A stretch of DNA of 64,000 nt from Pseudomonadota bacterium. Its GTDB lineage: Bacteria; Myxococcota_A; UBA796; SXON01. The position numbers and the translations under genes were made by a program. Below the pieces are notes generated by a model. That model saw only the letters and a program-made list of their open reading frames with translations. It made no database searches and was not told the origin of the DNA. Of the stretch, positions 4,605-63,852 are shown piece after piece. Location of the stretch: contig JAUXTN010000238.1 of assembly GCA_030684355.1 (NCBI GenBank), positions 106,690-170,689 of the forward strand, written 5' to 3'. Numbering within the stretch: the first letter of the stretch is position 1; the number at the start of each line of letters is the position of its first letter.

Positions 4605-4734
4605 CCCCCTACTCGGTGACCTGGGCGCCGGGCCAAAGGCTGAAACGCAGCCTTTCAGCAAAGTAAATAGTTGTCCGGCGTCCTCCCTCAGGGTAGGCGC
4701 CCGCTGCCGGGCAGACAAGCGGCCATGCCCCCGG

Positions 4735-15824: not shown

Positions 15825-18713
15825 TCAGGGGCAGGTCAACGCGTCCCAGGTCCCCTCGTTGTTGGTCTCGTCGGCTTCGGTGTGGGCGCCCGCCCCGACG
15901 CCGTCGTCGTCCACGACCACCACCAGCCCGTCGGTGCCCAGGTCGCCGACGGCCACCGAGAACGTGAGCGGGGCGAGACGGTCACCGGGGTACGCGACGT
16001 CGCTCGTCTGCTGCACGTCGAGGAGGGTGCGGGTGCCGCCGCTGTCGGCGTAGAGCGCCACGTTCACGCCCGCCGGGACGAACACCGCGCCGGTGTTGTC
16101 CAGGACGACGTAGACCTCGAGGCCGGAGGACGAGCAGGCCTCGCACACGCCGATGACCGCCGTCTCCAGATCGGGCGCGCCCGCGGGATCGTCGGACCAG
16201 CTCACCTGGCCGCGGAAGTTCTGGTGGTCGAGCCAGCTCGATGCGAGCGAGGTCGGGATCGACAGATCGTCGTTGACGTTGTCGGAGCTGTACGCGTGCT
16301 GGTTCCAGACGTTCCGCGCGCTCGCCCAGAGGTCGTTCTCCTCGCCCAACACCACGACGCCCTGCCAGCCGGCGACGCTGTAGTTGTTGGCCGGCACCAC
16401 GAGCTCCGCGGCGCCGTCGTTGTCCACGTCCGCGATGACCGCGTTCTCGTAGATCGAGCCCGAGGCCATCGACTCGTTGGTGTAGAGCTCGGTCCCCGTC
16501 GCGCCGTCCCAGATGAAGAGGTTGGTGCGGTCGATGTAGACCACCTCGCTGGCGCCGTCCCCGTCGAAGTCGAAGGCGGAGCAGGTCATCGTGCCGGAGC
16601 TCGGATCGTAGGTGGTGGCCGTCCAGAGCGTCGCGCCGTCGGTGTCGACGAGGGAGAATTCCGACGCGGAGGCGACGCCGATCTCCGGGCTGCCGTCGCC
16701 GTCGAAGTCCGCCACGCACGGCGGCGTGTTGCCCGTGCTCGCGACGGTGGACGTCCAGAGGAGGCTGCCGTCCCCGTCGACGACGGAGAGGACCCCGCCC
16801 TGGTACGCCACCAGCTCCGCGGCGTCGTCACTGTCGAAGTTCCCGACGGCGCCCATCGACCCCGAGGACATCGAGGAGCGGATCTCCACCGCGCCCGCGA
16901 TGTCCCACGTGGCATCGCCCGTGACCACCTCGGGGGTCCCGTCGAGATCGACGTCGGCGGCGAAGCTCACGGTCCCGCCCGTGGAGCCCAGCGCGGCGAG
17001 GGTGGCACCGGTGCAGTCCAGTACCAGGCCGCTCGCGATGATCTCCACGCAGCCGTCGGCGTCCATGTCGTGAAGGGCGGGGGAGCTGTACATGCTGGCC
17101 GTGTCCGTGGACACCCACTTCAGCGTGCCGTCGTGCTCGAGGGCCATGACGTGGCCCCCCGTGGACATCGTGAGGATGTCGGGCGAGCCGTCGCCTTCGA
17201 TGTCCCCGACGGCCACCCCGGCCGCGCCGTTGACGCTGTAGCCGCCGACGGAGGTGAGCGACCAATGCTCGCCGGTGCCGTCGCCCGAGAAGGCGCGCAG
17301 GTAGCCGGCACCGCCGTAGGACGAGCCGGTGAAGGCGGTGAAGAGCACGTCGGGCATGTCGCGCTCGTCGATGTCGCCGTCGCCGTCGTCGTCGGTCACC
17401 TGGCCGACCACCGGCGTCATCATCACCTCGGTGTAGGCGCTGCCCGCGCTGTATCCGAAGTCGTCGGTCTGCCACTCGATCGCCACGCTCCAGTCCAGGG
17501 GCGACGTGGTGACGGTCGCGCCGGTGTCGTAGGCCACGGTCGCGGCCCCGGGGAGCCCGTCGCAGGGATCGGGATCCTCGGCACCGTCGCAGTCGCTGTC
17601 AACGCCGTCGTACCAACTCTCGGCCGCGCCCGGGTACACATCCACGGCGTCATCGTCGCAATCGGTGCTGTCCACGATGCCGGCGGCGTCGCAAGAGAGG
17701 GTCGCGCTGCCGGCGTCGCCGAAGCCGTCCCCGTCGATGTCGGCGTACCAGGTAGAAGCGTCGGCGGCGTCGGGCTCGTCGACCGTGCCGTCGCAATCGT
17801 TGTCGACGGTGTCACACACCTCGGTGGCGTCCGGGTTGGTGGCAGCCACGGCGTCGTCGCAGTCCGTGGCGTCGGCCACGCCCGTCGCGTCGCAGGAGAC
17901 ACTGGAGCTGCTGGGATCCCCGAAGCCGTCGGCGTCGGTGTCGGCGTACCAGGTGGCGGCATCCGCGGCGTCCGGCTCGTCGACGGTGCCGTCGCAGTCG
18001 TTGTCGAGGGTGTCACACAGCTCGGTGGCGTCGGGGTTCACGTCGACCAGCGCATCGTCGCAGTCGCCGCCCAGGGCCGCGTAGCCCGCGGGCAGCTCGC
18101 ATGCCGCGGTCACGACGGCGTCGTCGCCCCAGCCGTCGCCGTCGGCGTCCTGCCAGTACGTGGCGGTCACCCCCTCGTCGACGACACCGTCACAATTGTT
18201 GTCGATCGCGTCGCACACCTCGATCGCGACGGGGTTGACATCGATATCGGCGTCGTCACACTCCGCGCAGGCCGCGTACCCGTCGCCGTCCGCGTCGGCG
18301 TATCCGACGCTGCCATCGCAGTTGTAGTCGTTGGGATCCGCGCAGTCCGCCTCAGCGGCGCCGGGGTTGTAGGCGATGTCGCCGTCGTCACAGTCGTCGG
18401 CGCCCGCGACGTGGCCCTCCGGGGCCTCGCACGCCGTGGTCGCGGTCGACGCGTCGCCGTACCCGTCGCCATCGACATCGGCGTACCAGGTGGAGGCGTC
18501 GGTCGCGTCCTCGTCGGACTCGCCGTCGCAGTCGTTGTCCACACCGTCGCAGAGCTCGGGGGCGCCGGGGAAGCTGGTGGCGACGTCGTCGTCGCAATCG
18601 TCCGCGGCGCTGACGCCGTCCCCGTCCTCGTCGATCCCCACGTCGGGGACGTCCACCTTGTCTTTCGTCGGATCGCAGCCGAGGGTGCAGAGGAGGAGCA
18701 GGGAAAGGCGCAT
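15825..18713 (-). CDS. Large lipoprotein with MopE-like Cys/Asp metal-binding repeats and FG-GAP/VCBS repeats
   Basis: Track ORF trimmed to ATG 18713 (lipobox MRLSLLLLCTLGC). It has about six repeats of ..CDDxDxxxxPGAxExCDxxDNDCDGxxDE..WYADxDGDGxGD.., followed by FG-GAP-type DxDGDG blades. Confidence 0.9.
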   Translation of the reverse strand: MRLSLLLLCTLGCDPTKDKVDVPDVGIDEDGDGVSAADDCDDDVATSFPGAPELCDGVDNDCDGESDEDATDASTWYADVDGDGYGDASTATTACEAPEGHVAGADDCDDGDIAYNPGAAEADCADPNDYNCDGSVGYADADGDGYAACAECDDADIDVNPVAIEVCDAIDNNCDGVVDEGVTATYWQDADGDGWGDDAVVTAACELPAGYAALGGDCDDALVDVNPDATELCDTLDNDCDGTVDEPDAADAATWYADTDADGFGDPSSSSVSCDATGVADATDCDDAVAATNPDATEVCDTVDNDCDGTVDEPDAADASTWYADIDGDGFGDAGSATLSCDAAGIVDSTDCDDDAVDVYPGAAESWYDGVDSDCDGAEDPDPCDGLPGAATVAYDTGATVTTSPLDWSVAIEWQTDDFGYSAGSAYTEVMMTPVVGQVTDDDGDGDIDERDMPDVLFTAFTGSSYGGAGYLRAFSGDGTGEHWSLTSVGGYSVNGAAGVAVGDIEGDGSPDILTMSTGGHVMALEHDGTLKWVSTDTASMYSSPALHDMDADGCVEIIASGLVLDCTGATLAALGSTGGTVSFAADVDLDGTPEVVTGDATWDIAGAVEIRSSMSSGSMGAVGNFDSDDAAELVAYQGGVLSVVDGDGSLLWTSTVASTGNTPPCVADFDGDGSPEIGVASASEFSLVDTDGATLWTATTYDPSSGTMTCSAFDFDGDGASEVVYIDRTNLFIWDGATGTELYTNESMASGSIYENAVIADVDNDGAAELVVPANNYSVAGWQGVVVLGEENDLWASARNVWNQHAYSSDNVNDDLSIPTSLASSWLDHQNFRGQVSWSDDPAGAPDLETAVIGVCEACSSSGLEVYVVLDNTGAVFVPAGVNVALYADSGGTRTLLDVQQTSDVAYPGDRLAPLTFSVAVGDLGTDGLVVVVDDDGVGAGAHTEADETNNEGTWDALTCP

Positions 18714-18848
18714 GGTTTTCTCCGGTGCGCGAGTATGCACGTTCTCGAAATGTTTGCGAGCACCGGGCGGGAGATCGACGATCGCCCCGCGGTCGAGGAG
18801 GTGTCGTCGAAGATGGCGGCATGGCACGCAGCTTGCGAGAGGGCAGGC

Positions 18849-19427
18849 ATGTCCGACATCCCCCGCCTCCTCGACGCCATCCTGGTCCACCATGCCTTCC
18901 TGCGCCGCGAGCTCGATCGCCTCGACACCGAGCTCGTCGGCGCCCCGCGGCAGATCGCGGCGCCGTTCGCCCACTTCCGGCGCTCGATGATCGAGCACAT
19001 GGACCACGAGGAGGCGGAGATCTTCCCCGCGATCCGCGCCTTCGCCGCGGGCCACCTCGCCGCCGCGGACCTGCCCGCGCTCCACGAGGAGCGGGACGCC
19101 ATCGGCACCTTCGAGCTGTCGCTGCGGGAGGCCGCGCGCGACGCCGGACGGCTCGAAGCCGATCTGCTCGCCATGCTCGACGACCTGGCCGAGCACGTGC
19201 GCAAGGAGGACGAGGAGCTCGTGCCAGCCGTCGCCGCCCTGGTGCGGGAGCGCGCGGGTCCGGCGGCCGCGATGCGTCCCCCGACCGCGGCGCCTCCCCC
19301 GACCGGAAGGCCCGCACCGCGCCCGATCCCGATCCCGCCGCCGGCACCGGCACGCGCCGGCCTGCGCGGGGGGCTGGTTGGCCTCGCACGACGGATGTGG
19401 GGGAAGGCCCACGGCCCCGTCGAATGA
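18849..19427 (+). CDS. Hemerythrin (HHE cation-binding) domain protein
   Basis: This is the 3' end of the 1310-aa track ORF. ATG 18849 gives MSDIPRLLDAILVHHAFLRRELDRL..HMDHEEAEIFP..LAEHVRKEDEEL. The start could be 18813. The C-terminal tail is Pro-rich. Confidence 0.75.
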   Translation: MSDIPRLLDAILVHHAFLRRELDRLDTELVGAPRQIAAPFAHFRRSMIEHMDHEEAEIFPAIRAFAAGHLAAADLPALHEERDAIGTFELSLREAARDAGRLEADLLAMLDDLAEHVRKEDEELVPAVAALVRERAGPAAAMRPPTAAPPPTGRPAPRPIPIPPPAPARAGLRGGLVGLARRMWGKAHGPVE

Positions 19428-19494
19428 ACGGGGCGTCCGGACACCTCGGGGTGGACGAGCTCGCACGCGACCGCGCCCGTCGATACCTTCGGGC

Positions 19495-20745
19495 ATGCTG
19501 CTCCTCCTCGCCTGCACGCCTCCCGACGAAGCCGCGCCTCCCGACGAGACCGCGGCGCCGCGCACGTGTCCCGCCGCCGTGGCGCCGCCCCCCGCCGATC
19601 TCGACGGGGACGGGCACGCCGACCTCGCCTGGGCGCAGACCGAGGACGCGGAGGGCACCTACGACGCCACGTCGATCGTGACCTTCGGCCCCGACTTCAC
19701 CCGCCGCCAGGAGTTCCCTACCCTCGGGGCGGACGGCGTCGCGGTCGCGGATCTCGACGGCGACGGCTGGCCGGAGCTCGTGTACGCCTCGGTCTCCGAC
19801 GGCGAGGCCCGCGCCGTCGACAGCTTCGTGTACCGCGGCGCCCCGGGCGGCCCCACGGTGGCGGATCCGGTGCGCCTGCCGGGCATCGGCGCCTCCGCCG
19901 TGACCATCGACGACGTCGACGGCGACGGCGCCCTCGACCTCTTCCTCTCGAACCGGTACGACGGCGAGGGCTTCTCCGAGGCCGCCTACACCGTGGACTC
20001 CGCGCTCTACCTCGGTGCGGCGGGTGGGGTCTCCCCGGACCGGGTCGCGCACGTGGAGACGTTGGGCGCGGGGGACGCCCGCTTCGCCGACCTCGACCAG
20101 GACGGATGGACCGACCTCGTCGTCGCGAGCGGAACCCTGTTCGCCGACGCGAGTCGCATCTACTACGGGGGTCCGGACGGCTACTCGCGCGACGCGACGG
20201 TGGAGCTCCCCACCGCCGCGCCCGAGGGCGTGGTGGTCGCGGACTGGAACGGCGACGGGTGGCTCGACCTCTTCTTCTCGAACTTCTACGACGCGCTCGA
20301 GCTCGACATCGACTCGCCGCTCTACTGGGGCTCGCCCGACGGCTACTCCGCCGACGCCGTGCAGTGGATCGCCACCCACGGCGCCACCGACGCCCTCGCG
20401 GCCGATCTCGACGGCGACGACTGCCTCGAGCTGGTGGTCGCGAACAGCATGACGGGGAGCTTCGCCGAATTGGAATTCGAGGTGGCCAGCGAGGTGTGGG
20501 CGGGCAGCCCGGACGGCCCGACGACGGTGCGCGCGCGCCTCCCCACGATCTCGGCGGCGGCGGTCTCGGCCGCGGATCTCGACGGGGACGGCGACACGGA
20601 CCTCGTCTTCGCGAACCGCTACGACGCCGACGGGGCGCCGACGTCGGCCTCGTACGTCTACTGGAACGACGGCGGGTTCTCGGAGGACGACCGGACGGAG
20701 ATCCCCACGGTGGGGGCGGCGGGGGTCACGGCGACGGCGCGGTAG
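19495..20745 (+). CDS. FG-GAP/VCBS repeat lipoprotein
   Basis: Track ORF 19378..20745, trimmed to ATG 19495 (MLLLLACTPP). It has repeated ADLDGDGxxDLV blades. Confidence 0.85.
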   Translation: MLLLLACTPPDEAAPPDETAAPRTCPAAVAPPPADLDGDGHADLAWAQTEDAEGTYDATSIVTFGPDFTRRQEFPTLGADGVAVADLDGDGWPELVYASVSDGEARAVDSFVYRGAPGGPTVADPVRLPGIGASAVTIDDVDGDGALDLFLSNRYDGEGFSEAAYTVDSALYLGAAGGVSPDRVAHVETLGAGDARFADLDQDGWTDLVVASGTLFADASRIYYGGPDGYSRDATVELPTAAPEGVVVADWNGDGWLDLFFSNFYDALELDIDSPLYWGSPDGYSADAVQWIATHGATDALAADLDGDDCLELVVANSMTGSFAELEFEVASEVWAGSPDGPTTVRARLPTISAAAVSAADLDGDGDTDLVFANRYDADGAPTSASYVYWNDGGFSEDDRTEIPTVGAAGVTATAR

Positions 20746-35683: not shown

Positions 35684-36151
35684 TCACGTGAAGATGATCT
35701 GCGCCCCGTCGGCCAGGTCGTAGAAGTCGCCCGCGGTGATCACGTCGCGCACCTGGGGCAGGAGATCCGCCTTCGTGCGGCCGAACATCTTCATCGCGAG
35801 CTCGCACGCGTACAGCTCGGCGCCCGAGTCGTCGAGGATCTGGATGAATTCGCGCGCCCCGGGCAGGTCGAGCTCCTCCATCTTCCGCTTCATCATCGAC
35901 GCCGCGACGCTCTCCATGCCCGGCAGCCCCGCGATCATCGTCGGCAGGGGGCTCGTCGGGTTGCCTGCCATGTTGACGTGCAGGTGGTCGACCTTGCTCT
36001 CGGTGATGGCGTCGAGGCCCCAGAACGTGAAGAACACGAAGCAGTCGATGCCGGACTGGCGGGCGGCGTTGGCCAGGATGAGGGCCGGGTAGACCTCGTC
36101 GAGGCCCCCGTGGGAGCAGATGATGGCGATCTTGCGGTCGGGCGTGTCCAT
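35684..36151 (-). CDS. DsrE/DsrF-like sulfur-relay family protein
   Basis: 155-aa ORF: MDTPDRKIAIICSHGGLDEVYPALILANAA..CFVFFTFWGL..ELYACELAM... Confidence 0.9.
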   Translation of the reverse strand: MDTPDRKIAIICSHGGLDEVYPALILANAARQSGIDCFVFFTFWGLDAITESKVDHLHVNMAGNPTSPLPTMIAGLPGMESVAASMMKRKMEELDLPGAREFIQILDDSGAELYACELAMKMFGRTKADLLPQVRDVITAGDFYDLADGAQIIFT

Positions 36152-36169
36152 GAGGTCCTCCGATGGGCG

Positions 36170-37143: not shown

Positions 37144-38373
37144 TCAACTCCACTTCCCCGCCATCGCCATGCGGTGGTCGAGCGGCAGATCCTCCCCGCG
37201 GAGGAGCAGGTTCCAGTACACCCACCGGAAGCCGAGCTTGCCCCAGTGGTTCACATAGGATTCTTCGAGCAGCGTGAACGGCCCGACCCCGGGCAGGGGG
37301 AAGCGGCCGGGGAGCGGCTCGGTGTCGTAGTTGAAGTCGATCAACATCGCCTTGCCGTGGCCAGTCTCGATGAAGCAGTTGGCGTGCCCGTCGAAGGCGG
37401 GAAGGAGCTCCCTCTGCGCGATGAAGCGGAGCACGTTCTCTACCAGCACCTCCGATTGGAAGTGCGCCACCGCCCCCGCCTTGGATGCGGGCAGGTTGGT
37501 GCAGTCTCCCAACGCGAAGACCTCGGGGTGGGCGAGCGTCTGGAGCGTGTGCTTGTGCGTGGGGACGAACCCGGCGGTGTCCCCCATCCCGGAGCGGGCG
37601 ATGGCGTCGCTCCCCTTGTGCAAGGGGATGGTGACGAGCAGGTCGTAGTCGAGCTCGCGGCCGTCGAAGCCGACGAGCTTCCGCGCCTCGCCGTCCACCT
37701 TCGCCGCGGCGAAATCCGCCTCGACGGCGATCTTGCGCTCGGTGAGCATCCCACCCAGCGCCTGCGAGGCCCGCGGCTTGGTGAACGCGCCGTCGAGCGG
37801 CGTGGCGTAGACGATCTCGACCCGGTCGCGGATTTTCCGCTCGGTGAAGTACGCATCCGCGAGGAAGAGGAACTCCAGCGGCGCCACCGGGCACTTGATC
37901 GGCATCTCCACGACGTTGAGGAGGAGCCGCCCCCCGGTGAAGCCGTCGAGCGCCTTCGCCAGCGCCTTCGCACCGTCGAGGGTGTAGAAGTCGGACGCCG
38001 TCTGGCGCCAGCCGTGGCCGGTGAGGCCCTCGGTGGCCGCGGGGTCGACCTCGGTGCCGGTGGCGACGATCAGCACGTCGTAGGAGAGCGACCGGCCGTC
38101 GGCGAGGCGCACCGTGCGGGTGTCGGGCTCGACGCGGTCGAGGCCGGCGAGGTCGAGCGTGACCCCCGCGGGACAGTAGCGGCGGCGGCGGCGGACGATG
38201 TCGTCGGCGGCGTACATCCCGAACGGCACGAACAGGAGCCCGGGTTGGTAGACGTGGTCGTCGTCGCGGTCGACCAGGGTGATCCGCCAGCCGTCGGGGG
38301 CGAGCTCCCGGGACAGGCGGGCCGCCATCATGGTGCCGGCGGTGCCGGCGCCGAGGATGACCAGGTTCTTCAT
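37144..38373 (-). CDS. sqr: Sulfide:quinone oxidoreductase-type FAD-dependent oxidoreductase
   Basis: ATG 38373 gives MKNLVILGAGTAGTMMA. Motifs: MPIKCPVAPLEF, FALGDCTNLPASKAG. The stop lies 2 nt before the next start. Confidence 0.85.
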   Translation of the reverse strand: MKNLVILGAGTAGTMMAARLSRELAPDGWRITLVDRDDDHVYQPGLLFVPFGMYAADDIVRRRRRYCPAGVTLDLAGLDRVEPDTRTVRLADGRSLSYDVLIVATGTEVDPAATEGLTGHGWRQTASDFYTLDGAKALAKALDGFTGGRLLLNVVEMPIKCPVAPLEFLFLADAYFTERKIRDRVEIVYATPLDGAFTKPRASQALGGMLTERKIAVEADFAAAKVDGEARKLVGFDGRELDYDLLVTIPLHKGSDAIARSGMGDTAGFVPTHKHTLQTLAHPEVFALGDCTNLPASKAGAVAHFQSEVLVENVLRFIAQRELLPAFDGHANCFIETGHGKAMLIDFNYDTEPLPGRFPLPGVGPFTLLEESYVNHWGKLGFRWVYWNLLLRGEDLPLDHRMAMAGKWS

Positions 38374-38530
38374 GCAGGTGCCTCGCGGTGGGAGCGGGCC
38401 GATTGCACGCGACGTGCCAACGACCGGATCCGCCTCCAACGCCACGTTCGCCCACACCCGAGGTCGCGCCTGGGCTAGCTGCCGCAGTTCGGATGTGCGA
38501 TAGCACACAGTGGGGCGGGCGGCTTGCGCT

Positions 38531-38584
38531 CTACCGCGCCAGGGCGCCCCCGCTACCGCGCCAGGGCGCCCCCGCTACCGCGCC
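38531..38584. repeat. 22-bp direct tandem repeat, about 2.5 copies (CTACCGCGCCAGGGCGCCCCCG)
   Basis: Copies at 38531..38552 and 38553..38574, plus a partial third copy at 38575..38584 that contains the stop codon and last codons of the EEP gene. Confidence 0.9.
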
Positions 38585-50177: not shown

Positions 50178-50744
50178 CTACTTCGCCGGCGGCAGCAGCA
50201 CGGCATCCACCACGTGCACCACGCCGTTCATCCCCTGCACGGATGCGATCACGTTGGCATCGTCGATCATCACCTTGCCGTCCTTCAGGTGCACGGTGAC
50301 CGAGGTGCCGTCCGACATCCCGATGACCTGCCCGTCCTTCAGATCCTTGATCGTCATGACGGGGACCGCCGCGTGGTGCTGCACGATCTTCTTCAGATCG
50401 GCCTTCTTCTCGGGCTTGAGGAGCGAGTCGAGGGTGCCGGCCGGCAGCTTGTCGAACGCCGCGTTGGTGGGCGCGAACACGGTGTAGATGCCACCCGGGC
50501 TGCCGAGCGCGGGCGCGAGGTCGGTCGCCTTGACCGCCGCCACGAGCGTGGTGTGGTCGGCCGAGCCGAGCGCGATGTCGAGCACGGTCTTCTCGGCGTC
50601 CGACTTGGGAGCAGCCGGCTTGGGCGGAGGCGCGGGGGCCGCTGCGACGGCGGGCGCCGCGGTGGCCCCGGCAGTCGGGGCGGGCTGCGAGTTGGAGCAA
50701 CCGATCAGCGCGGCAAGTGAGAACATCGACAGCAAAGCAGGCAT
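50178..50744 (-). CDS. Fasciclin (FAS1) domain lipoprotein
   Basis: Lipobox LAALIGCS. FAS1 motifs: YTVFAPTNAAF and GVVHVVDAVLLP. Confidence 0.9.
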   Translation of the reverse strand: MPALLSMFSLAALIGCSNSQPAPTAGATAAPAVAAAPAPPPKPAAPKSDAEKTVLDIALGSADHTTLVAAVKATDLAPALGSPGGIYTVFAPTNAAFDKLPAGTLDSLLKPEKKADLKKIVQHHAAVPVMTIKDLKDGQVIGMSDGTSVTVHLKDGKVMIDDANVIASVQGMNGVVHVVDAVLLPPAK

Positions 50745-50876: not shown

Positions 50877-51584
50877 CTACTCGTACTGCGCGAGGAGCCG
50901 TTCGACCTCACGGCTGCCGGCTTGCTCGTCCGCCGAGGTGATGACCATGCCGTGGTCGATGAGCACCACCATGGGCCAGGCGCTGTACCGGCTGAAGGTC
51001 CAGAAGAAGGCGCCGTCGCCATCCCCCACGACGGGGTGGGTCAGCCCGAAGTCGTCCGCCCAGCCCGCCAGGTCACCCGTGGAGTCCCCGTCAAGGGCGG
51101 TGATCACGATGAAGCCGCGATCGACATTGCGCTCGTAAAGCTCTTGGAGGCCGCCGGCCTCCGCCATGCAGGTGCCTCACGTGAAGCCCGCACCCACCAC
51201 GAGCACCACCTGGTCGCAGAAGTCGTGCAGATGGAGGCGCTCCCCGAATTGGTCGCCGAACTCGAAGTTCTCGACCACGTCCCCCACGTCCGAGCCAGTG
51301 GATTCCGTGTCATTGCGGCACGCGTCGATCTGCCAACCCGCCTGGTACGGCTTGTCGTCCGCGTCCAACGGATCGGTGTGGCCGTCGACCTCCGCCCCAT
51401 CCTCGTAGCCGTCCTCGTCGGAGTCCACGTTCGCGGGATCCGAGCCGATCTCCGCCTCCTCGGAGTCGAGCAGGCCGTCTCCGTCACCGTCGACCTCCTC
51501 CTCGTCGGCGTCCTTCTTCGGCGCGCCCGCGCAGGCGAGCGCGAAGGCGAGGGCAAGGCCCAATGGAAATTCAAGGCGCATCAT
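50877..51584 (-). CDS. TlpA/ResA-like thioredoxin-fold lipoprotein with an in-frame TGA at the first redox position (candidate Sec UxxC, or a pseudogene)
   Basis: Track ORFs 51177..51611 and 50877..51167 are in the same frame, separated only by TGA 51179..51177 plus three codons. Joined, they read ..VVLVVGAGFT-[TGA]-GTCMAEAGGLQELYERNVDRGFIVITALDGD... The N-terminus has a lipobox (ALAC) and thrombospondin-type-3-like Asp repeats. Confidence 0.6.
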
Positions 51585-51693
51585 GCTGCACTCCAGGTAG
51601 CGCAGCGACACTACCCCATCGCCGCGCCGACGTCAGCGAAACCATCCGATGGGCGCGCGCGCCGACCCGGATCCCCGGGTTACCGGCTTCGCC

Positions 51694-52554: not shown

Positions 52555-52584
52555 TGAAGAATACCTCATATGATAGATTCTTCA
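52555..52584. promoter_or_regulatory. Candidate ArsR/SmtB operator: 30-bp imperfect palindrome TGAAGAATACCTCATATGATAGATTCTTCA
   Basis: 12 of 15 positions are symmetric, including perfect 8-bp outer arms (TGAAGAAT/ATTCTTCA). It is the most AT-rich spot of the region, about 110 nt upstream of the ArsR-family start. Confidence 0.45.
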
Positions 52585-52692
52585 ACCAAGTCACCGGATG
52601 CCCTCGGATCGCCTGCTCCTGCCTTCGGCCGCTCGGACCGGCCCCCTCCTCCCGGGCGTGGGGACCGTCGGGCCCGCCGCAGCGAGCGCGTG

Positions 52693-53022
52693 ATGGCCCC
52701 CGTCGTCCACCCATCCGACCTGGCCGTCGAGCGCGCCGTCGACCTGCTCGCCGCGATGGCGCATCCGGCCCGGCTCGCGGTGCTCTCGTGGCTGCACCGG
52801 CGCGGCCCCACCGCCGTGGGGGACCTCGTCGAGGCCCTCGGCATCGAGCAGACGGCGATGTCGCACCACCTCCGCCACCTCCGTGACGCCCGGCTCGTCG
52901 AGACGGAGCGCCAGGGGAAGCGCGTGGTCTACCGCCTGGTGGACGACCACGTCGGCTGCATCGTCGAGGACGCGATCGGCCACGCCGCCGAAGGCGTCGG
53001 CGCGCAGGAGGAGGCGCGATGA
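52693..53022 (+). CDS. ArsR/SmtB-family metalloregulator
   Basis: Track ORF trimmed to ATG 52693: ..LAAMAHPARLAVLSWLHRRGPTAVGDLVEALGIEQTAMSHHLRHLRDARLVETERQGKRVVYRL. It has an ATGA overlap with the ATPase gene. Confidence 0.9.
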   Translation: MAPVVHPSDLAVERAVDLLAAMAHPARLAVLSWLHRRGPTAVGDLVEALGIEQTAMSHHLRHLRDARLVETERQGKRVVYRLVDDHVGCIVEDAIGHAAEGVGAQEEAR

Positions 53023-55358
53023 GCACCGAGAAGGAGAGCTGCGGCTGCGGCACCCCCTGCCCCCCGGAAGCACCGGCCTCGGGCGCCGAGGCACGCCCCG
53101 TCACCGTCGGCGTTCGCATGCCGACCCGGAAGGGCGCCGCCCCTCCGCCGGCGCCCGCCACACCCGGCGCCCCGGCCCTCGACTTCCGCATCCACGGCAT
53201 GGACTGCGCCGAGGAGGTCGGCATCCTCCGGCGCGCCCTCCGAGGCGTGGTGCCCGAGGACGCACTGGAGTTCGACGCCCTCCACGGCCGGATGCGGGTC
53301 CGCGCCGCCGTCCCCGCCGAGCGCGTGACGGCCGCCGTCGCCGTCACGGGGATGCGCGCGGAGCCGTGGGTGGAGGCTCCCGCCGCCGCCGCCCCCCAGA
53401 AGCACGCCTGGGGGCTCCGCGACGGGCTCGTCGTCGCCAGCGGGCTCGGCACCGCCGTCGGCTTCGGCACCCACGTCGCGCTCGGCGGACTCGCCGCCGC
53501 GGTCGGCTCCGAGGGGGCGGGCGTCGCGGAGAGCGTCCCGTGGGCTGCCGGGATCGCCTACGCCGTCGCCATCGCCGCCGGGCTCTGGATCGTGCTCCCG
53601 AAGGCCTGGTACGCCGCGCGGTCCCTGCGGCCGGACATGAACCTGCTCATGACCGTCGCGGTGGTGGGCGCGCTCGCGCTCGGCGAGTGGTTCGAGGCGG
53701 CCACGGTCTCCTTCCTGTTCGCGCTCTCCCTCGCGATGGAGGCCTGGAGCGTCGGCCGCGCACGCCGGTCGGTCGCGGCGCTCCTGCGGCTCGCGCCCGA
53801 GCGCGCGCGGGTCGTACGCGACGGCGTGGAGGTGGAGGTCGAGCCCGCGTCGGTCGCCCCCGGGACCTTGTTCCACGTCTACCCAGGCGAACGCTTCCCC
53901 CTCGACGGCCGCGTGGAGGCGGGGGCGAGCGAGGTGAACCAGGCGCCCATCACGGGCGAGAGCGTGCCGGTCTCCAAGCAGCAGGGAGACGAGGTGTTCG
54001 CCGGCACCATCAACGGGAGCGGCTCCCTGGAGGTCGTGTCGACCAAGGCGTCGGCCGACACCACGCTCGCGCGCATCGTGCGGATGGTCGCGGACAGCCA
54101 GGCGCGGCGCTCGGAGTCCGAGCAGTGGGTGGACCGCTTCGCCCGCGTCTACACGCCCGTCGTCTTCGGCCTCGCGCTCGCCGTGGCGGTGCTCCCGCCG
54201 CTCCTCCTCGGCGCGGCGTGGGACGCGTGGATCTACCGGGGGCTCGTGCTCCTCGTCATCGGCTGCCCGTGCGCGCTGGTGATCGCGACGCCGGTGAGCA
54301 TCGTCGCCGCCTTGACCGCGGCCGCGACCCACGGCGTGCTGCTCAAGGGAGGGCGGCTCGTGGAGGTGCCCGCGTCGCTCCGCGTACTCGCGTTCGACAA
54401 GACCGGCACGCTCACCGAGGGCCGTCCGCGGGTCGTCGAGGTGGTCCCGCTCTCCGAGCACGACGACCGCGCGCTCCTCGCACGCGCCGCCGCCGTCGAG
54501 GCCCGCTCGGAGCACCCCCTCGCGGTCGCGGTCCTCGACCATGCGCGCAGCCTGGGCGTGACCCCGGTGCCCGCGAACGACGTCCGCTCGGTCGCCGGCC
54601 GGGGCGCGGAGGGATGGATCGACGGGCGCAGGTTCTGGGTCGGTTCGCACCGGTGGCTCGAAGAGAGCGGCCTGGAGACACCGGCCGTCCGCGAGCGGCT
54701 CCTCGCGCTGTCCTCGGCAGGGCGGACCGTCGTCGTCGTCGGGAACGAGACGCACGTGTGCGGGCTCCTGGCCGTCGCGGATGCCGTGCGGCCGGGCGCC
54801 GCGGCGGCCGTCGCGGCGCTGAAGAAGGAGATCGGACACGTCGTCGTGCTCACGGGCGACAACCGGGCGACGGCGGAGGCGGTGGCGCGCGCAGTCGGCG
54901 TCGACGACGTGCGGGCCGAGCTCCTCCCGGCCGACAAGGTCCGCGAGGTCGAGGCGCTGGAACGCCGATACGGCGCGGTGGCGATGGTCGGCGACGGCGT
55001 GAACGACGCCCCCGCGCTCGCCCGTGCGTCCTTCGGCATCGCGATGGGCGCGGCCGGCAGCGACGTCGCAATCGAGACGGCCGACGTGGCGCTGATGGGC
55101 GACGACCTCGCCAAGATCGCCTGGCTCGTGCGCCACTCGCGCCGGACGCTGCGGGTCATCCGCGCGAACGCCGCCTTCGCGCTCGGGATCAAGGCGATCT
55201 TCGTGGTGCTGACGTTCGCGGGCGTGGCGTCTCTCTGGGGCGCGATCGCGGCGGACATGGGGGCGTCGTTGCTCGTGGTGTTCAACGCCCTTCGGTTGCT
55301 GCGGTCGCCGCAGGAGCAGCCCGCCGCTCCGGTTGCGGTGCGGTCCCGAGCCGCATAG
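53019..55358 (+). CDS. P1B-type heavy-metal-translocating ATPase (Zn/Cd/Pb/Co class likely)
   Basis: Motifs: ITGESVPV, IGCPCALVIATP (CPC), FDKTGTLTEG, GDGVNDAPAL. The N-terminus is Cys-rich (ESCGCGTPCP) and is followed by an HMA-like domain. Confidence 0.95.
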   Translation: MSTEKESCGCGTPCPPEAPASGAEARPVTVGVRMPTRKGAAPPPAPATPGAPALDFRIHGMDCAEEVGILRRALRGVVPEDALEFDALHGRMRVRAAVPAERVTAAVAVTGMRAEPWVEAPAAAAPQKHAWGLRDGLVVASGLGTAVGFGTHVALGGLAAAVGSEGAGVAESVPWAAGIAYAVAIAAGLWIVLPKAWYAARSLRPDMNLLMTVAVVGALALGEWFEAATVSFLFALSLAMEAWSVGRARRSVAALLRLAPERARVVRDGVEVEVEPASVAPGTLFHVYPGERFPLDGRVEAGASEVNQAPITGESVPVSKQQGDEVFAGTINGSGSLEVVSTKASADTTLARIVRMVADSQARRSESEQWVDRFARVYTPVVFGLALAVAVLPPLLLGAAWDAWIYRGLVLLVIGCPCALVIATPVSIVAALTAAATHGVLLKGGRLVEVPASLRVLAFDKTGTLTEGRPRVVEVVPLSEHDDRALLARAAAVEARSEHPLAVAVLDHARSLGVTPVPANDVRSVAGRGAEGWIDGRRFWVGSHRWLEESGLETPAVRERLLALSSAGRTVVVVGNETHVCGLLAVADAVRPGAAAAVAALKKEIGHVVVLTGDNRATAEAVARAVGVDDVRAELLPADKVREVEALERRYGAVAMVGDGVNDAPALARASFGIAMGAAGSDVAIETADVALMGDDLAKIAWLVRHSRRTLRVIRANAAFALGIKAIFVVLTFAGVASLWGAIAADMGASLLVVFNALRLLRSPQEQPAAPVAVRSRAA

Positions 55359-55370
55359 CCGACCCGAAGC

Positions 55371-55715
55371 GTGTTCCGCCTCCTCCGCCTCTTCGTTGCC
55401 GTCTTCGTCCTCTTCGGGCTGATCCCCGGCGGCGTGGAGCTCTTCGAGAACCTGGAGCACGTCATCCACGACGGGCACCTCGCCCACGCAGAGGACCATC
55501 TCGACGAGGAGGAGCACGGCGCCGCGAGCGATGAGCACGGCTGCACGCCCATGATGCACGTGTGCGGTTGCCACGCGTCGCTCTCCGCGCTTCCGAGTGT
55601 GGACGCCCCGGAGCTCCGCCCCCCCCACTCCGACGAGGCCCCGAGTCCCGTCGCTCTGGACGATCGCCCGCTCGCCCGCGCCACCGCGCCGCCGACGCCG
55701 CCCCCCGACGCCTGA
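55371..55715 (+). CDS. His/Cys-rich small membrane-anchored protein (putative metal-binding accessory protein)
   Basis: GTG start and a hydrophobic N-terminus (LLRLFVAVFVLFGLIPGG), followed by ..HVIHDGHLAHAEDHLDEEEHGAASDEHGCTPMMHVCGCHAS... Confidence 0.6.
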   Translation: MFRLLRLFVAVFVLFGLIPGGVELFENLEHVIHDGHLAHAEDHLDEEEHGAASDEHGCTPMMHVCGCHASLSALPSVDAPELRPPHSDEAPSPVALDDRPLARATAPPTPPPDA

Positions 55716-55791
55716 CCCCGATCCGGAACCCAAGGTCCGCGACGTCGCCTGACGTCCGCGATGTTCCTCCCCTTCCGTTCGAGGTCACCTC

Positions 55792-55929
55792 GTGTCCCAC
55801 ATCCGTTCGCGCGGCGCGGCCGTCGCGCTCCTGCTCCTGTTCACGGGGGCGGCCGCCGCCGCCGCCGCTCGCATCGACCACCTCCTGGCGTCCGAGAGCG
55901 ACACGCCGATCCCCGGGGGTGTGGAATGA
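55792..55929 (+). CDS. Possible 45-aa signal-peptide-like sORF coupled to the adaptor gene
   Basis: GAGG lies 7 nt before GTG 55792. The product is VSHIRSRGAAVALLLLFTGAAAAAAARIDHLL... Its stop overlaps ATG 55926 (ATGA). It is speculative. Confidence 0.25.
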   Translation: MSHIRSRGAAVALLLLFTGAAAAAAARIDHLLASESDTPIPGGVE

Positions 55930-57137
55930 GGACGTTGACAATCGCCTGGTTCGCTCAGGCCGTCGCATGCGCCGGGAGCCCAGGGGAAGCAGGGAAGGCC
56001 CAGGCGGGGCAGGAGCACGCCGAAAGGGAGCACGGAGAGGAACGACACGAGGAGAACGGTCACGGCGAGGAGCACGAGGAGTTCGTCAAGCTCTCGCCCG
56101 AGGCGCTGACGGTCGCCGCCCTCCGGGTCGAGTCCGCCTCATCGCGTTCGTCGTCCGGCTCCTTCGCGACCAGCGCCCGGATTGCGCTCGATCCACGTCG
56201 CGAGGCGCAGGTGAGCGCGGCCACGGCGGGGCAGGTCGACCGGATCCTCGTCCGTACGGGCGAAACCGTTCGGGATGGTCAGACGCTCGCGACCGTGGTG
56301 TCCGCAGAGCTCGGCGAGGCGGTCGCGGCCTTCCACACGTCGCATGCGCGCCGTGAGGTGGCCTCTGCCCGCGCCGAACGCCTGCGGGGCCTGGAGGGGC
56401 AGGGCGTCTCGTCCAAGGCCGACGTCGCCGAGGCCGACGCGGAGCTGAAGGTAGCGGCAGCCGAGTTCGAGGCGGCGGAGGAACGCCTGCGGGTCCTCGG
56501 TGTTCGCCCGGACGCCAGTTCAGCCGGTCACTACCCCTCGCAGTTTCCCGTTCGCTCGCCGATCGCGGGCGAGGTGCTCGCCGCCGAGGCTCGGGTCGGG
56601 CAGTCCGTGCAGCCCGGCGCCGGGCTCTTTCACATCGGGAACCTGGACGAAGTCTGGCTGTTGCTCGACGTCTACGAGCGCGACCTCGCGAAGGTGGGGA
56701 AGGGCCAGGAGGTGCGCTTCCGCGTGGACGCCTGGCCTGACGTCGCCTTCGAAGGGACCGTCGACTGGGTCGGTGCCGTCGTCCAACCGGACAGCCGCAC
56801 GGTCGAGTTGCGCGTCGTCGTCCCCAACGCTGACCATCGCCTGAAGCCGGGGATGTTCGCGCGCGCGGACCTCGGACTCGCGCCCCACGCGAACGGCGGA
56901 GCGCTCGTGGTCGTGCCCGCGGAGGCCGTCCAGGAGTTCGAGGGGCGGAGCGTCGTGTTCGTCCAGTCGGCACCCGACACCTTCGCGGCGCGCACCGTCC
57001 GCATCGCTTCGCGGCACGGGAGCGACGTCCACCTCGCCGAGGGCGTGACCCCCGGCGAGCCGATCGTCGTCGAAGGGGCCTTCACCCTGAAGAGCGAGCT
57101 CGCGAAGGGCGAGCTCGGGGAACGCCATGCCCACTGA
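55926..57137 (+). CDS. Heavy-metal RND efflux adaptor (CzcB/CusB-like), with a His/Glu-rich N-terminal region
   Basis: Track ORF trimmed to ATG 55926 (MRTLTIAWFAQAVACAG). EHAEREHGEERHEENGHGEEHEE is followed by the membrane-fusion core ..VRSPIAGEVL... Confidence 0.9.
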   Translation: MRTLTIAWFAQAVACAGSPGEAGKAQAGQEHAEREHGEERHEENGHGEEHEEFVKLSPEALTVAALRVESASSRSSSGSFATSARIALDPRREAQVSAATAGQVDRILVRTGETVRDGQTLATVVSAELGEAVAAFHTSHARREVASARAERLRGLEGQGVSSKADVAEADAELKVAAAEFEAAEERLRVLGVRPDASSAGHYPSQFPVRSPIAGEVLAAEARVGQSVQPGAGLFHIGNLDEVWLLLDVYERDLAKVGKGQEVRFRVDAWPDVAFEGTVDWVGAVVQPDSRTVELRVVVPNADHRLKPGMFARADLGLAPHANGGALVVVPAEAVQEFEGRSVVFVQSAPDTFAARTVRIASRHGSDVHLAEGVTPGEPIVVEGAFTLKSELAKGELGERHAH

Positions 57138-60100
57138 CCCCATGAAGGCGGACGATCTGCTGGGCGGCGGAGGCCCGCACCTGATCGATCGCATCATCGC
57201 CGCCGCGATCCGGGACCGACTGCTCGTCCTGATTGGCGTAGTGCTCCTGATCGCGGCGGGTGTGCGGAGCGCCCTGTCACTCCCGATCGATGCCGTCCCC
57301 GACGTCACGAACGTGCAGGTGCAGATCCTCACGAACTCGCCGGGGCTCGGTCCCGAGGAGATCGAGCGGTTCATCACCACGCCCGTGGAGGCCGCCATGG
57401 GCGGTGTACCGGACGTCGTGGAGCTACGTTCGCTGTCCCGCTTCGGCCTCTCCGTCGTCACCGTGGTGTTCGAGGAGGGCACGGACATCTGGTGGGCGCG
57501 GCAGGCCATCGGGGAGCGCCTCGTCGAGGCGCGGGAGGCCATCCCGGAGGGCTACGGCGAGCCGGAGATGGGGCCGATCTCCTCGGGCTTGGGCGAGATC
57601 TACCAGTTCGAGGTGCGAGGCGAGGGCCTGTCCCTCATGGAGCTCCGCGACATCCTCGACTGGCAGATCGCACCGCGCCTCCGGGGCGTGCCGGGCGTCG
57701 TCGAGGTCAACTCCTTCGGCGGCCAGCTCCGCACCTACGAGGTCAGCATCCGCCCGGACGCCCTCGCGGCGCACGGGCTCGTGCTGGGGGACCTGTACGA
57801 GGCCCTGGAGCAGAACAACGCAGCGGCGGGAGGCGGCTACCTCCAGAAGGGCCGCGAGCAGGTCCTCGTGCGCGGCGAGGCGCTCCTTGGCTCCCTGGAG
57901 GACATCGCCGCGGTGGTCGTCGACGCGACCGACGACGGCACGCCCATCACGATCGGGGCCCTCGGCGAGGTGCGGTTCGCCCCGATGATCCGCCAGGGCG
58001 CGGTCACCCGCGACGGGCGCGGAGAGGCCGTGACCGGCATCGTCATGATGCTCCTCGGCGAGAACTCCCGAACCGTCGTGGAGCGGGTGAAGGAGCGGAT
58101 GGCGGAGATCGAACCGACCCTCCCGCAGGGGGTGACGGTCGAGGTCTTCTACGACCGGGCCGACCTCATCGCGCGGACGATCGGGACGGTCGAGACGAAC
58201 CTCCTGGAAGGCGGCCTCCTCGTCGTCGGAGTGCTGCTCCTCACCCTCGGGAATCTCCGCGGTGGCCTCATCGTCGCGACCGCAATCCCACTCTCGATGC
58301 TCTTCGCGTTCGTCGGGATGCGGGCCGCGGGCGTGTCCGGCAACCTGATGTCGCTCGGCGCGATCGACTTCGGGCTCCTGGTCGACGGCTCGGTCGTCAT
58401 GGTCGAGAACATCGTCCGCGTGGTCGGCCACCGCCGGAAGCAGGGGCTCCCGGTGGATCGCGGCACCGTGCTCGAGGCCGCCCGCGAGGTGGGCCGCCCC
58501 ATCGTCTTCGCGGTGGGGATCATCATCCTCGTGTACCTGCCCCTCCTGACGCTCACGGGCATCGAGGGGAAGATGTTCCGGCCCATGGCGCTGACCGTGG
58601 TGTTCGCGCTCCTCGGATCGCTCGTGCTCGCGCTCACCCTCATGCCCGTCCTTGGGACCTTCTTCCTGCTGAAGGCGGAGGAGAAGGAGACATGGTTCCT
58701 CCGGGTGGTCCACACCGCGTACGTGCCTCTCCTCGGGAAGGCCATGTCCTGGCGGCGCCTCACCTTCGGCGCGGCCGTGGCGGTGTTCGCGGCGAGCCTT
58801 GTCATCATCCCGTTCCTGGGCGCGGAGTTCGTGCCGCGCCTCGATGAGGGCGCCATCGCCCTCCAGATCGCGCGCCTCCCCTCCGTGTCGCTGGAGGAGT
58901 CGATCCGCCAAGCGGGCGAGGCCGAGCGTGTCATCCTGGTGGCGTACCCCGACGAGGTGGCCACGGTTGTCTCGAAGACCGGGCGAGCGGAGATCGCGAC
59001 CGACCCGATGGGGGTCGACTTCTCCGACGTCTTCGTGATGCTGAAGCCGATCGACGGATGGACGAAGGTGGTGGACAAGGCCGAGTTGGTAGAGGGCCTT
59101 CAGGAGCTGCTCGGGAGGTCGGTGCCCGGCGCCAACTTCTCGTTCTCCCAGCCCATCGAGCTGCGGGTGAACGAGCTGATCGAGGGGGTCCGTTCGGACG
59201 TCGCCGTGCAGATCTACGGGGACGACACCGCCGAGCTGGCTCGCGTCGGCAACGCCGCGGCTGCCGTGCTGCGGACGGTGGAGGGCGCGGAGGACGTGAA
59301 GGTCGAGCAGGTGGCCGGCTTGCCGGTGCTGCGCATCGTGGCGGACCGCCCGGCCCTCGCCCGACTGGGGATCGACGGCACGGCGATCCTCGACGCCGTG
59401 GAGGCGATCGGCGGGAGGCCCGTCGGCGTCGTGGTGGACGGGCCCCGTCGGTTCGACATCCAGGTCCGGTTCGCCGAGGAGGTGCGCGCCAACATCGACC
59501 GCGTGGGCGAGATCGTGGTCGGCGAGCCGAGCGGGGTGCGGGTGCCGTTGAAGCAGGTGGCGACGCTCACCGAGGAGCCCGGGCCCGCGCAGATCAGTCA
59601 CGAGGACCTTCGCCGGAAGCTCACCGTCGAGCTCAACGTGCGGGGCCGGGACATCGCGAGCTTCGTGGCCGAGGCCCAGGAGAAGTTGGACGGGGAGGTC
59701 GAGATCCCGACCGGCTACGAGACCGCGTGGGGCGGGCAATTCGAGAACCTCCAGGAGGCCTCGGCGCGCCTGGCAGTCGTCGTCCCGCTCGTGCTCCTGC
59801 TGATCTTCGTGCTGCTCCAGGCCGCGTTCGGCTCGGTGCGGCTGGCGGCGCTCGTCTACGCCAACGTCCCCCTCGCCATCAGCGGCGGCGTGTTCGCGCT
59901 CGCCCTCCGAGGCCTCCCCTTCTCGATCTCGGCGGGCGTGGGCTTCATCGCGCTGTTCGGCATCGCCGTGATGAACGGCGTCGTGCTCGTCACCTACATC
60001 CGCAAGCTCCACGAGGAGGGCGGCGCGACGGCCGCTGAGGCTGCCCGCGCGGGTGCGGAGGTTCGGCTTCGACCAGTCCTGATGACGGCGCTCGTCGCTG

Positions 60101-60423
60101 CACTCGGGTTCCTCCCGATGGCGCTCGCGACTTCTGCCGGCGCCGAGGTCCAGCGTCCGCTCGCGACCGTGGTCATCGGCGGCCTCGTCACGAGCACGTT
60201 GCTCACCCTGGTCGTGTTGCCGTCGCTGTACGCATGGGCGATGGGGAGGCTCGAGGTAGCCGGCGGCGCGGTCCGGGCTATCGCCCCCCCTCCCCCCACC
60301 GGGAGGGGGAAACCAGCCACGCCCGCGCCCCCTCCGACGACCACTCCCGCGCCCCGTCGATCCGCTCGACGAGCCGGCCATCCTCGACGCGGAACGTGGC
60401 GGGCAGGTCCCGAACGCCCGTGA
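57127..60423 (+). CDS. czcA: CzcA/CusA-family heavy-metal efflux RND transporter (HME)
   Basis: ..IDRIIAAAIRDRLLVLIGVVLLIAAG..LPIDAVPDVTNVQVQI.. is the typical HME-RND N-terminus. The protein is about 1098 aa, and its last ~50 aa form a Pro-rich tail encoded antisense to the convergent thioredoxin gene. Confidence 0.95.
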   Translation: MPTDPMKADDLLGGGGPHLIDRIIAAAIRDRLLVLIGVVLLIAAGVRSALSLPIDAVPDVTNVQVQILTNSPGLGPEEIERFITTPVEAAMGGVPDVVELRSLSRFGLSVVTVVFEEGTDIWWARQAIGERLVEAREAIPEGYGEPEMGPISSGLGEIYQFEVRGEGLSLMELRDILDWQIAPRLRGVPGVVEVNSFGGQLRTYEVSIRPDALAAHGLVLGDLYEALEQNNAAAGGGYLQKGREQVLVRGEALLGSLEDIAAVVVDATDDGTPITIGALGEVRFAPMIRQGAVTRDGRGEAVTGIVMMLLGENSRTVVERVKERMAEIEPTLPQGVTVEVFYDRADLIARTIGTVETNLLEGGLLVVGVLLLTLGNLRGGLIVATAIPLSMLFAFVGMRAAGVSGNLMSLGAIDFGLLVDGSVVMVENIVRVVGHRRKQGLPVDRGTVLEAAREVGRPIVFAVGIIILVYLPLLTLTGIEGKMFRPMALTVVFALLGSLVLALTLMPVLGTFFLLKAEEKETWFLRVVHTAYVPLLGKAMSWRRLTFGAAVAVFAASLVIIPFLGAEFVPRLDEGAIALQIARLPSVSLEESIRQAGEAERVILVAYPDEVATVVSKTGRAEIATDPMGVDFSDVFVMLKPIDGWTKVVDKAELVEGLQELLGRSVPGANFSFSQPIELRVNELIEGVRSDVAVQIYGDDTAELARVGNAAAAVLRTVEGAEDVKVEQVAGLPVLRIVADRPALARLGIDGTAILDAVEAIGGRPVGVVVDGPRRFDIQVRFAEEVRANIDRVGEIVVGEPSGVRVPLKQVATLTEEPGPAQISHEDLRRKLTVELNVRGRDIASFVAEAQEKLDGEVEIPTGYETAWGGQFENLQEASARLAVVVPLVLLLIFVLLQAAFGSVRLAALVYANVPLAISGGVFALALRGLPFSISAGVGFIALFGIAVMNGVVLVTYIRKLHEEGGATAAEAARAGAEVRLRPVLMTALVAALGFLPMALATSAGAEVQRPLATVVIGGLVTSTLLTLVVLPSLYAWAMGRLEVAGGAVRAIAPPPPTGRGKPATPAPPPTTTPAPRRSARRAGHPRRGTWRAGPERP

Positions 60424-60756
60424 CCGCCGCGATGCCGGGGTCGCGGACGACCTCCCCGGGGACCTCGCCCCCGAAGAACGCGGACACCGACGCCGGGTTC
60501 TCGTCCACGGACACCGCGACCAGCGGCACGCCCGCCTCGTGCGCGGCCGCCAGGAGCCCGGGCAGCTCGTCCCTGCACGGCACGCACCAGGTCGCCCAGA
60601 CGTGGAGGAGGCCGTCGCGCGGGGCCACGGCGGGCGCGTCGCCCGAGGTCGCCGTCGTGAGGAACGGTGCTGCCGGCTCCCGATCGAACGCGCGCCAGGC
60701 CAGCCACGCGCCGCCCTGGAGCGCGGCGAGGATCGCGAGGACGAGGAGGGCCCGCC

Positions 60757-60760
<4 letters not shown>
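60278..60760 (-). CDS. TlpA-like thiol:disulfide oxidoreductase (membrane-anchored thioredoxin)
   Basis: The GTG at 60760 overlaps the upstream stop (GTGA). A TM segment (ALLVLAILAAL) is followed by LLHVWATWCVPCRDELP, which contains the CxxC motif. Confidence 0.85.

Positions 60761-63852
<3,092 letters not shown>

Follow-up and report, generated by a model that had tools for sequence, protein, structure and literature searches.

Does the in-frame TGA at 51179..51177 on the minus strand end a gene, or does it encode selenocysteine (Sec) within a single longer protein? The question arises in a 64-kb window (the whole stretch of DNA that was analysed, 64,000 nucleotides with a GC content of 72.5%), where the open reading frames 51177..51611 and 50877..51167 lie in one frame with this TGA as the sole stop between them. 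A sequence-only reading of the window had described this arrangement, and the minus-strand sequence confirms it, the codons across the junction being GTG GTG GGT GCG GGC TTC ACG TGA GGC ACC TGC ATG GCG GAG GCC GGC GGC CTC CAA. Translation around the codon gives VVLVVGAGFT-TGA-GTCMAEAGGLQELYER, and on read-through the Sec peptide that bridges it is LHLHDFCDQVVLVVGAGFT-U-GTCMAEAGGLQELYER. The gene is delimited as follows.

50877..51584, minus strand: proposed selenoprotein coding sequence, complete, 235 codons including Sec136, with the TAG stop at 50877..50879

51591..51594, minus strand: Shine-Dalgarno-like GGAG, 6 nt upstream of ATG 51584, as judged from the sequence

The start codon is likely ATG 51584 rather than the mechanical GTG at 51611, and the same ATG is where NCBI begins its 135-residue fragment P0012. 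That N-terminal fragment (Q8P41_28990, 'hypothetical protein') is all that the NCBI annotation contains for the gene, which gene callers break into pieces of 135 and 96 residues. The expectation that automatic annotation would split the gene is thus borne out by the NCBI, JGI, ENA and Logan calls for this family, which give two 'hypothetical' fragments.

Several features of the encoded protein can be placed on either side of the TGA and across it.

51531..51584, minus strand: predicted signal peptide ending in the lipobox Cys18 (MMRLEFPLGLALAFALA-C), recognised by eye and from the alignment

51357..51494, minus strand: two bacterial TSP3 repeats (thrombospondin type-3-like, Ca-binding DxDxDG), Pfam PF18884

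50916..51287, minus strand: ResA/TlpA-like thioredoxin-fold (AhpC-TSA/Redoxin) domain that spans the TGA, from Pfam and a PDB match

51177..51179, minus strand: UGA, proposed Sec codon (residue 136) at the first position of U-G-T-C, from the alignment with homologues and ResA

51168..51170, minus strand: TGC, resolving Cys139 of UxxC, kept in every motif-bearing homologue

The N-terminus is hydrophobic, as seen by eye and in the alignment, and Cys18 is invariant among the homologues, whose lipoboxes read L-A-G-C, V-G-C or L-V-A-C; this signal and this Cys suggest that the read-through product is a lipoprotein. The TSP3_bac model (PF18884) matches two stretches of the protein at 37.8 bits against a cutoff of 25. 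With U entered as C, the Pfam matches to AhpC-TSA (34.6 bits against a cutoff of 26, residues 100-216) and Redoxin (31 bits against a cutoff of 26.6, residues 100-223) both run across residue 136. The best PDB sequence match in a phmmer search is ResA 4nmu (E = 3.9e-6), and in the alignments from this search U136 falls on the first Cys of the CKPC/CEPC motif in ResA while W-P of the window protein falls on the cis-Pro L-P.

For structural comparison we used an AlphaFold (AF2) model of the full-length Cys homologue P0014 (pLDDT 86). The top Foldseek match of this predicted structure is ResA (E = 9e-12, TM(target) 0.79), the best matches are ResA, DsbE and Etrx2 with TM(target) of 0.75-0.81, and Cys130, the equivalent of U136, directly precedes the modelled helix 131-147. 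By these sequence matches and this model, the domain is a thioredoxin fold of the TlpA/ResA/DsbE type, with a CxxC-type motif at the N-terminus of helix alpha1 and a cis-Pro loop, and the first position of that motif is Sec, not Cys. The label 'TlpA-like' given to the protein earlier is a fair one, its closest solved relatives being ResA, DsbE and TlpA-type reductases, and the claim that the TGA sits on the first redox Cys to give U-G-T-C agrees with the Cys aligned there in both ResA and the Cys homologues. We further note two more family-invariant cysteines, in the GWxIDACR and LHDFC motifs, which lie N-terminal to the active site (51180..51287, minus strand, residues ~84-123) and may be joined to each other by a disulfide of structural kind.

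The position of the TGA within this domain bears on the possibility that the locus makes two polypeptides, translation stopping at the TGA and restarting at ATG 51167 to give a TSP3 lipoprotein and a 96-residue protein. Gene callers predict exactly such a split, and the ATG lies 9 nt after the TGA with a GAGG 7 nt upstream of it that overlaps the stop. The split would, however, fall between strand beta1 and helix alpha1, breaking up one thioredoxin fold and taking away its nucleophile, and the Pfam matches cross the junction. Nor is ATG 51167 conserved: Q, V, E, T, S, L, R or I is found there elsewhere, and because the codon differs in other members, separate translation from it is excluded for the family. 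We therefore regard two separate products as extremely improbable.

A protein search returned 64 relatives. Dozens of these database homologues (50-88% identity) are split, with N-terminal fragments of ~127 residues that end in ...GAGFT, ...AAFW or ...GAFT and C-terminal fragments of ~96 residues that begin with MAEAGG, and in a few relatives of full length the TGA column falls in WCGPCQ, WCGNCQ or WCVPCQ. At the DNA level we compared two GTDB genomes (L001, L002), 40 metagenome contigs (L081-L120) and nine further contigs (L123-L131); in a genome scan for relatives, L001-L014 were informative and the remainder matched largely through the TSP3 pattern. These comparisons yielded ~50 homologous loci from other MAGs and metagenomes, with ~27-84% protein identity to the window protein. 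About 45 loci have an in-frame stop at the column, and this stop is always TGA, with no case of TAA or TAG. The TGA loci comprise two from the compared genomes, ~35 from metagenomes, the nine further contigs and three from distant genomes (L003, L004, L013), beyond which still more distant loci have Cys at the column.

TGC occurs at the column in a minority form, WCGPC, in L089, L099 and L109, and the residue aligned with U in these three loci and in P0009, P0014, P0016 and P0023 is the first Cys of a WCGPC, WCGNC or WCVPC motif. The first Cys is lost and the second kept in L113 (WHPVC) and L114 (WEGSC). Separately, P0051, P0053 and P0064 have lost the redox motif altogether (VVSMQTNPYQEMDD); to judge from their sequences, these three and L113 and L114 are possibly non-catalytic derivatives. 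Clades that differ by at least 50% in protein sequence share the TGA, and so does a paralogue at another locus of the same MAG (Q8P41_01030, P0022). The column is thus TGA in ~45 loci or Cys, as TGC, in a few, which is the pattern that a search of homologues had been proposed to look for, and the TGA is not strain-specific, being common to divergent clades and to the paralogue.

The paralogous copy lies at 10001..10681 of contig L123, from the same sample as the window, and its locus recurs in L124, L125, L127, L128 and L130, with the TGA in all copies. The gene order of this locus, common to many MAGs, is a sigma-54 activator, a small ORF, the UxxC gene and a Big_1/invasin-like protein of ~940 residues. 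The marine contig L087 has two tandem copies of the gene (at 1678 and 2568), each with a TGA and a hairpin.

These comparisons weigh on the explanation that a strain-specific nonsense mutation killed a Cys-type TlpA-like gene and left a pseudogene. A single in-frame stop does split the gene, and NCBI records only the 135-residue 'hypothetical protein'; set against this, TGA, never TAA or TAG, is shared at the column by some 45 loci of many organisms and by the paralogue, and the relatives are excluded as assembly chimeras of one sequence by their 27-84% protein identity to the window protein. The part of the gene beyond the TGA is also intact, with an open frame of 97-111 codons in each of the 40 complete loci, and it evolves under constraint. 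In close marine pairs pN/pS after the TGA is 0.00-0.16, and L102 and L108 differ by no nonsynonymous change there at a pS of 0.24. In high-GC relatives the ratio is 0.3-0.7, with synonymous sites saturated or biased and hence uninformative. On these substitution patterns the C-terminal ORF is under purifying selection, and a dead gene is very hard to credit.

An error of sequencing or assembly, with TGC or TGT as the real codon, had been named by the sequence-only reading as a way in which its claim could fail. The sequence comes from a MAG, and one base change is enough to turn TGA into either Cys codon. The concern is answered by a second, Logan assembly of the source reads (SRR13727518), which also has the TGA and is 100% identical over 4408 nt that include it, and by the recurrence of the TGA across independent samples and projects. 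The probability that we would assign to such an error is vanishingly small.

It remains to consider whether the UGA is read as a standard amino acid (Trp, Gly or Cys), by reassignment or by a suppressor tRNA, in a selenium-free product. One gene caller did render a homologue's TGA as Trp: the apparent Trp in P0015 (L132) is a TGA read through by the JGI gene call, which presumably used an alternative genetic code. This contig of 930 nt thereby acquired a spurious full-length 'peroxiredoxin' with the motif FWWGSC. Furthermore, the Sec machinery was not found in the sequence covered, which also counts against Sec. Searches with E. coli SelA, SelB and SelD (tblastn) against the 64-kb window and the fetched loci gave a sole match, EF-like and at an unrelated locus; ARAGORN found no tRNA in the window and no tRNA-Sec in any of the fetched loci; and selA, selB, selC and selD were not found within the window or the ~0.5 Mb of fetched flanks. 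Sec decoding by the host is suggested by its two conserved Sec-type genes.

Against a standard amino acid stand three observations. Most ordinary genes of the window end in TGA, their commonest stop, and the codon is therefore not reassigned. The codons that alternate with TGA at the redox-active position are specifically those for Cys. Simple suppression would leave no role for the hairpin described below, which is conserved and covaries and stands at SECIS distance. We consider decoding as a standard amino acid to be highly unlikely. Taken together, the comparative data and the second assembly rule out a pseudogene confined to one strain, an error of sequencing and global recoding.

Other sites of the window were inspected as further TGA candidates. 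The in-frame pair 55359..55715 and 55716..57137 was rejected as two adjacent genes, and a [WFY]-TGA-xx-C site at 37445 was rejected because its frame is non-coding. Sec forms are also known among DsrE-like proteins. The window encodes a DsrE_2-family protein near a pyridine-nucleotide disulfide oxidoreductase (35684..36169 and 37144..38574, both on the minus strand), and this DsrE_2 gene has no in-frame TGA.

In bacterial Sec insertion, a SECIS hairpin recruits SelB·GTP·Sec-tRNA(Sec) at the UGA. A perfect hairpin, GGAGGCC-GGC-GGCCUCC, had been noticed beginning 15 nt after the TGA, and it is present in the minus-strand transcript at 51162..51146.

51146..51162, minus strand: candidate SECIS core hairpin, from the bSECIS consensus and covariation

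Its stem of 7 bp pairs 51162..51156 with 51152..51146 around the loop GGC (51155..51153), at a UGA-to-loop spacing of 21 nt and with a free energy of -12.4 kcal/mol. The published bSECIS consensus calls for an apical loop of 3-9 nt, a stem of 4-16 bp, a G in the first two loop positions, a distance of 16-37 nt from the UGA and an MFE of at most -7.5 kcal/mol (PMC13188914). The hairpin, for which a check against SECIS rules had been suggested, agrees with every one of these. Perfect hairpins of 7 bp or more that obey the SECIS spacing and loop rules follow only 1.7% of window positions and 1.5% of window TGA trinucleotides. The 63-nt region folds no better than shuffles of the same composition (z = -0.93, not significant), so that thermodynamics alone is unconvincing, and an Rfam search of the 64-kb window matched no RNA family. 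For the assignment as SECIS, the evolutionary evidence is decisive.

Among the 14 distinct sequences of the window's clade, the stem codons GAG, GCC, GGC/AGC and CTC have zero third-position entropy, while variation is seen in the flanking codons and in the loop Gly codon (GGT in 9, GGG in 3 and GGC in 2). The pair at the base of the stem covaries (G-C in 9 sequences, C-G in 2 and U-A in 2), tying a synonymous site in an Ala codon to position 1 of a Q/E/N codon; the other stem pairs are mostly invariant, and direct covariation in this clade is that of one pair. In a marine clade of 19 sequences the counterpart is a 7-bp hairpin, CAGAGCU-GGA-AGCUCUG, with GGA as its loop. It lies 8 nt further downstream, at +25 from the UGA against +17 in the window's clade, with the protein alignment ungapped. 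This marine hairpin is 99.2% paired, with compensatory changes in 3 of its 7 pairs, and none of 500 shuffles reaches the observed values. In L093 and L095, two of the marine loci (L086-L111), the Glu and Ala codons are swapped (GAG..GCU to GCU..GAG) and two base pairs are preserved. The encoded peptide may thus have co-evolved with the RNA hairpin, as in this exchange of E and A. A small clade with the motif W-U-x-G-C-R-AETPGLAEMY has only a weak 4-bp stem of -6.1 kcal/mol.

We conclude that 50877..51584 on the minus strand is very probably one gene, which, to judge from comparison of sequences, would encode a 235-residue, lipid-anchored, extracytoplasmic oxidoreductase of the ResA/TlpA type with Sec as its nucleophile (U-G-T-C). 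The earlier proposal of a Sec-containing periplasmic thiol-disulfide oxidoreductase gains support from the conservation of TGA with Cys as its alternate, from selection downstream of the codon and from the conserved, covarying hairpin.

By analogy with known bacterial Sec insertion, the mRNA hairpin 15 nt past UGA-136 would recruit SelB·GTP·Sec-tRNA(Sec), and the UGA would then be decoded as Sec, not stop. The signal and lipobox sequences suggest that the protein is exported and acylated at Cys18. The mature protein, with its two Ca-binding TSP3 repeats, could act as a reductase along the lines of ResA/TlpA chemistry: Sec136 would attack a disulfide or sulfenic acid of the substrate, Cys139 would resolve the intermediate to a selenenylsulfide, and a membrane electron shuttle of the CcdA/DsbD type might re-reduce it.

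Downstream of the gene lie a fasciclin lipoprotein (50178..50744) and a TadG-like protein. Upstream and divergent from it is a further group of genes.

52570..60423, plus strand: metal-resistance cluster

This cluster holds an ArsR-family regulator, a heavy-metal P-type ATPase, a small His/Cys-rich ORF (55371..55715), a CusB/HlyD adaptor and an AcrB/CzcA pump. At the paralogous locus the neighbours are a sigma-54 regulator/activator and a Big_1 adhesin-like gene. The thioredoxin-like ORF 60278..60793 (minus strand, WATWCVPC), to which the sequence-only reading had compared the protein, matches Pfam Thioredoxin marginally (24.2 bits against 23.5). An AcrB-family gene (60757..63852) immediately precedes this ORF, which also seems to run into the 3' end of the CzcA-like gene (57127..60423) transcribed towards it. 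Elsewhere in the window are a 1277-codon ORF with five MopE-type Cu-binding motifs and FG-GAP repeats (15825..19658, minus strand) and a 1045-codon ORF with a di-haem cytochrome c peroxidase (MauG-like) domain (2406..5543, minus strand).

For annotation, reading the two fragments as one gene corrects a systematic error, in which NCBI, JGI, ENA and Logan show two 'hypothetical' proteins and, once, a Trp read-through. Because of such fragmented calls, selenium use is under-counted in dozens of environmental genomes, and the organism of the window can, on the evidence of its two UxxC genes, be flagged as a likely Sec user. The prokaryotic selenoproteome would gain a Sec-dominated ResA/TlpA-like subfamily predicted to be exported and lipid-anchored. 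The two hairpin registers offer a natural example of in-ORF SECIS drift constraining the encoded amino acids. The understanding of Sec decoding and of thioredoxin-fold selenoproteins is unchanged by this gene.

UxxC thioredoxin-fold proteins are the commonest class of predicted bacterial selenoproteins. TlpA-like and Prx-like members with UxxC have been known since 2005, and the gene described here belongs to that kind. The Sargasso Sea and GOS surveys list a 'Prx-like' family (PF00578 and PF08534, UxxC) and a 'thiol-disulfide isomerase-like' family (cd02966, UxxC) (PMC1088965, PMC2398784; inventory PMC13188914). Like these, the window family has a thioredoxin fold with AhpC-TSA/Redoxin matches, Sec at the first Cys, Cys homologues and an in-ORF bacterial SECIS hairpin, and is abundant in marine metagenomes. 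What appears to set it apart is the combination of a predicted lipoprotein signal with two TSP3 repeats and a PYxxGWxIDACR...HDFC module that is conserved. A peroxiredoxin proper was considered and rejected: the motif is [FW]-[TWGS]-U-x-x-C, PxxxTxxC(U) is absent, and the matches to GSHPx and BCP fall below their cutoffs.

ResA of Bacillus and the TlpA/CcmG/DsbE proteins are extracytoplasmic CxxC reductases in the maturation of cytochrome c and Cu centres. The window protein resembles ResA, TlpA and DsbE in the motif at the N-terminus of helix alpha1 and the cis-Pro loop, and like them it is predicted to be exported and membrane- or lipid-anchored. It differs from them in having Sec as the nucleophile and an N-terminal Ca-binding TSP3 extension, and, unlike for ResA and TlpA, no cytochrome c maturation, Sco or CcdA/DsbD genes were seen near either copy. 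The hairpin is likewise close to the SECIS of the E. coli fdhF type, a stem-loop that follows the UGA closely inside the ORF and opens its small apical loop with G-G. It departs from that type in its minimal loop of 3 nt and in that a bulged U is not evident; SelB binding is putative. A further difference is that the marine clade places the hairpin 8 nt further downstream despite an ungapped protein alignment.

No NCBIfam model reaches its cutoff for the family. The best, ResA, gives 32-55 bits against 170, and the model for ResA-like selenoproteins, WAxxUGC_long, gives 24 bits against 300. None of six peptide strings typical of the family occurs in the sequence files that supplement GOS, a weak negative given that these files are possibly line-wrapped or incomplete. 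Since the NCBIfam models miss their cutoffs and the peptide strings are absent from the GOS supplements, the family is perhaps uncatalogued. We hold it possible, though somewhat doubtful, that this is a distinct selenoprotein family, spread widely through marine, freshwater and groundwater samples and not included in the curated inventories of today. If so, it would consist of lipid-anchored, Ca-binding (TSP3), extracytoplasmic Sec-dependent reductases in which Sec forms outnumber Cys forms by ~10 to 1. The gene adds a member to the well-known UxxC thioredoxin-fold selenoproteins and probably represents a new subfamily of them.
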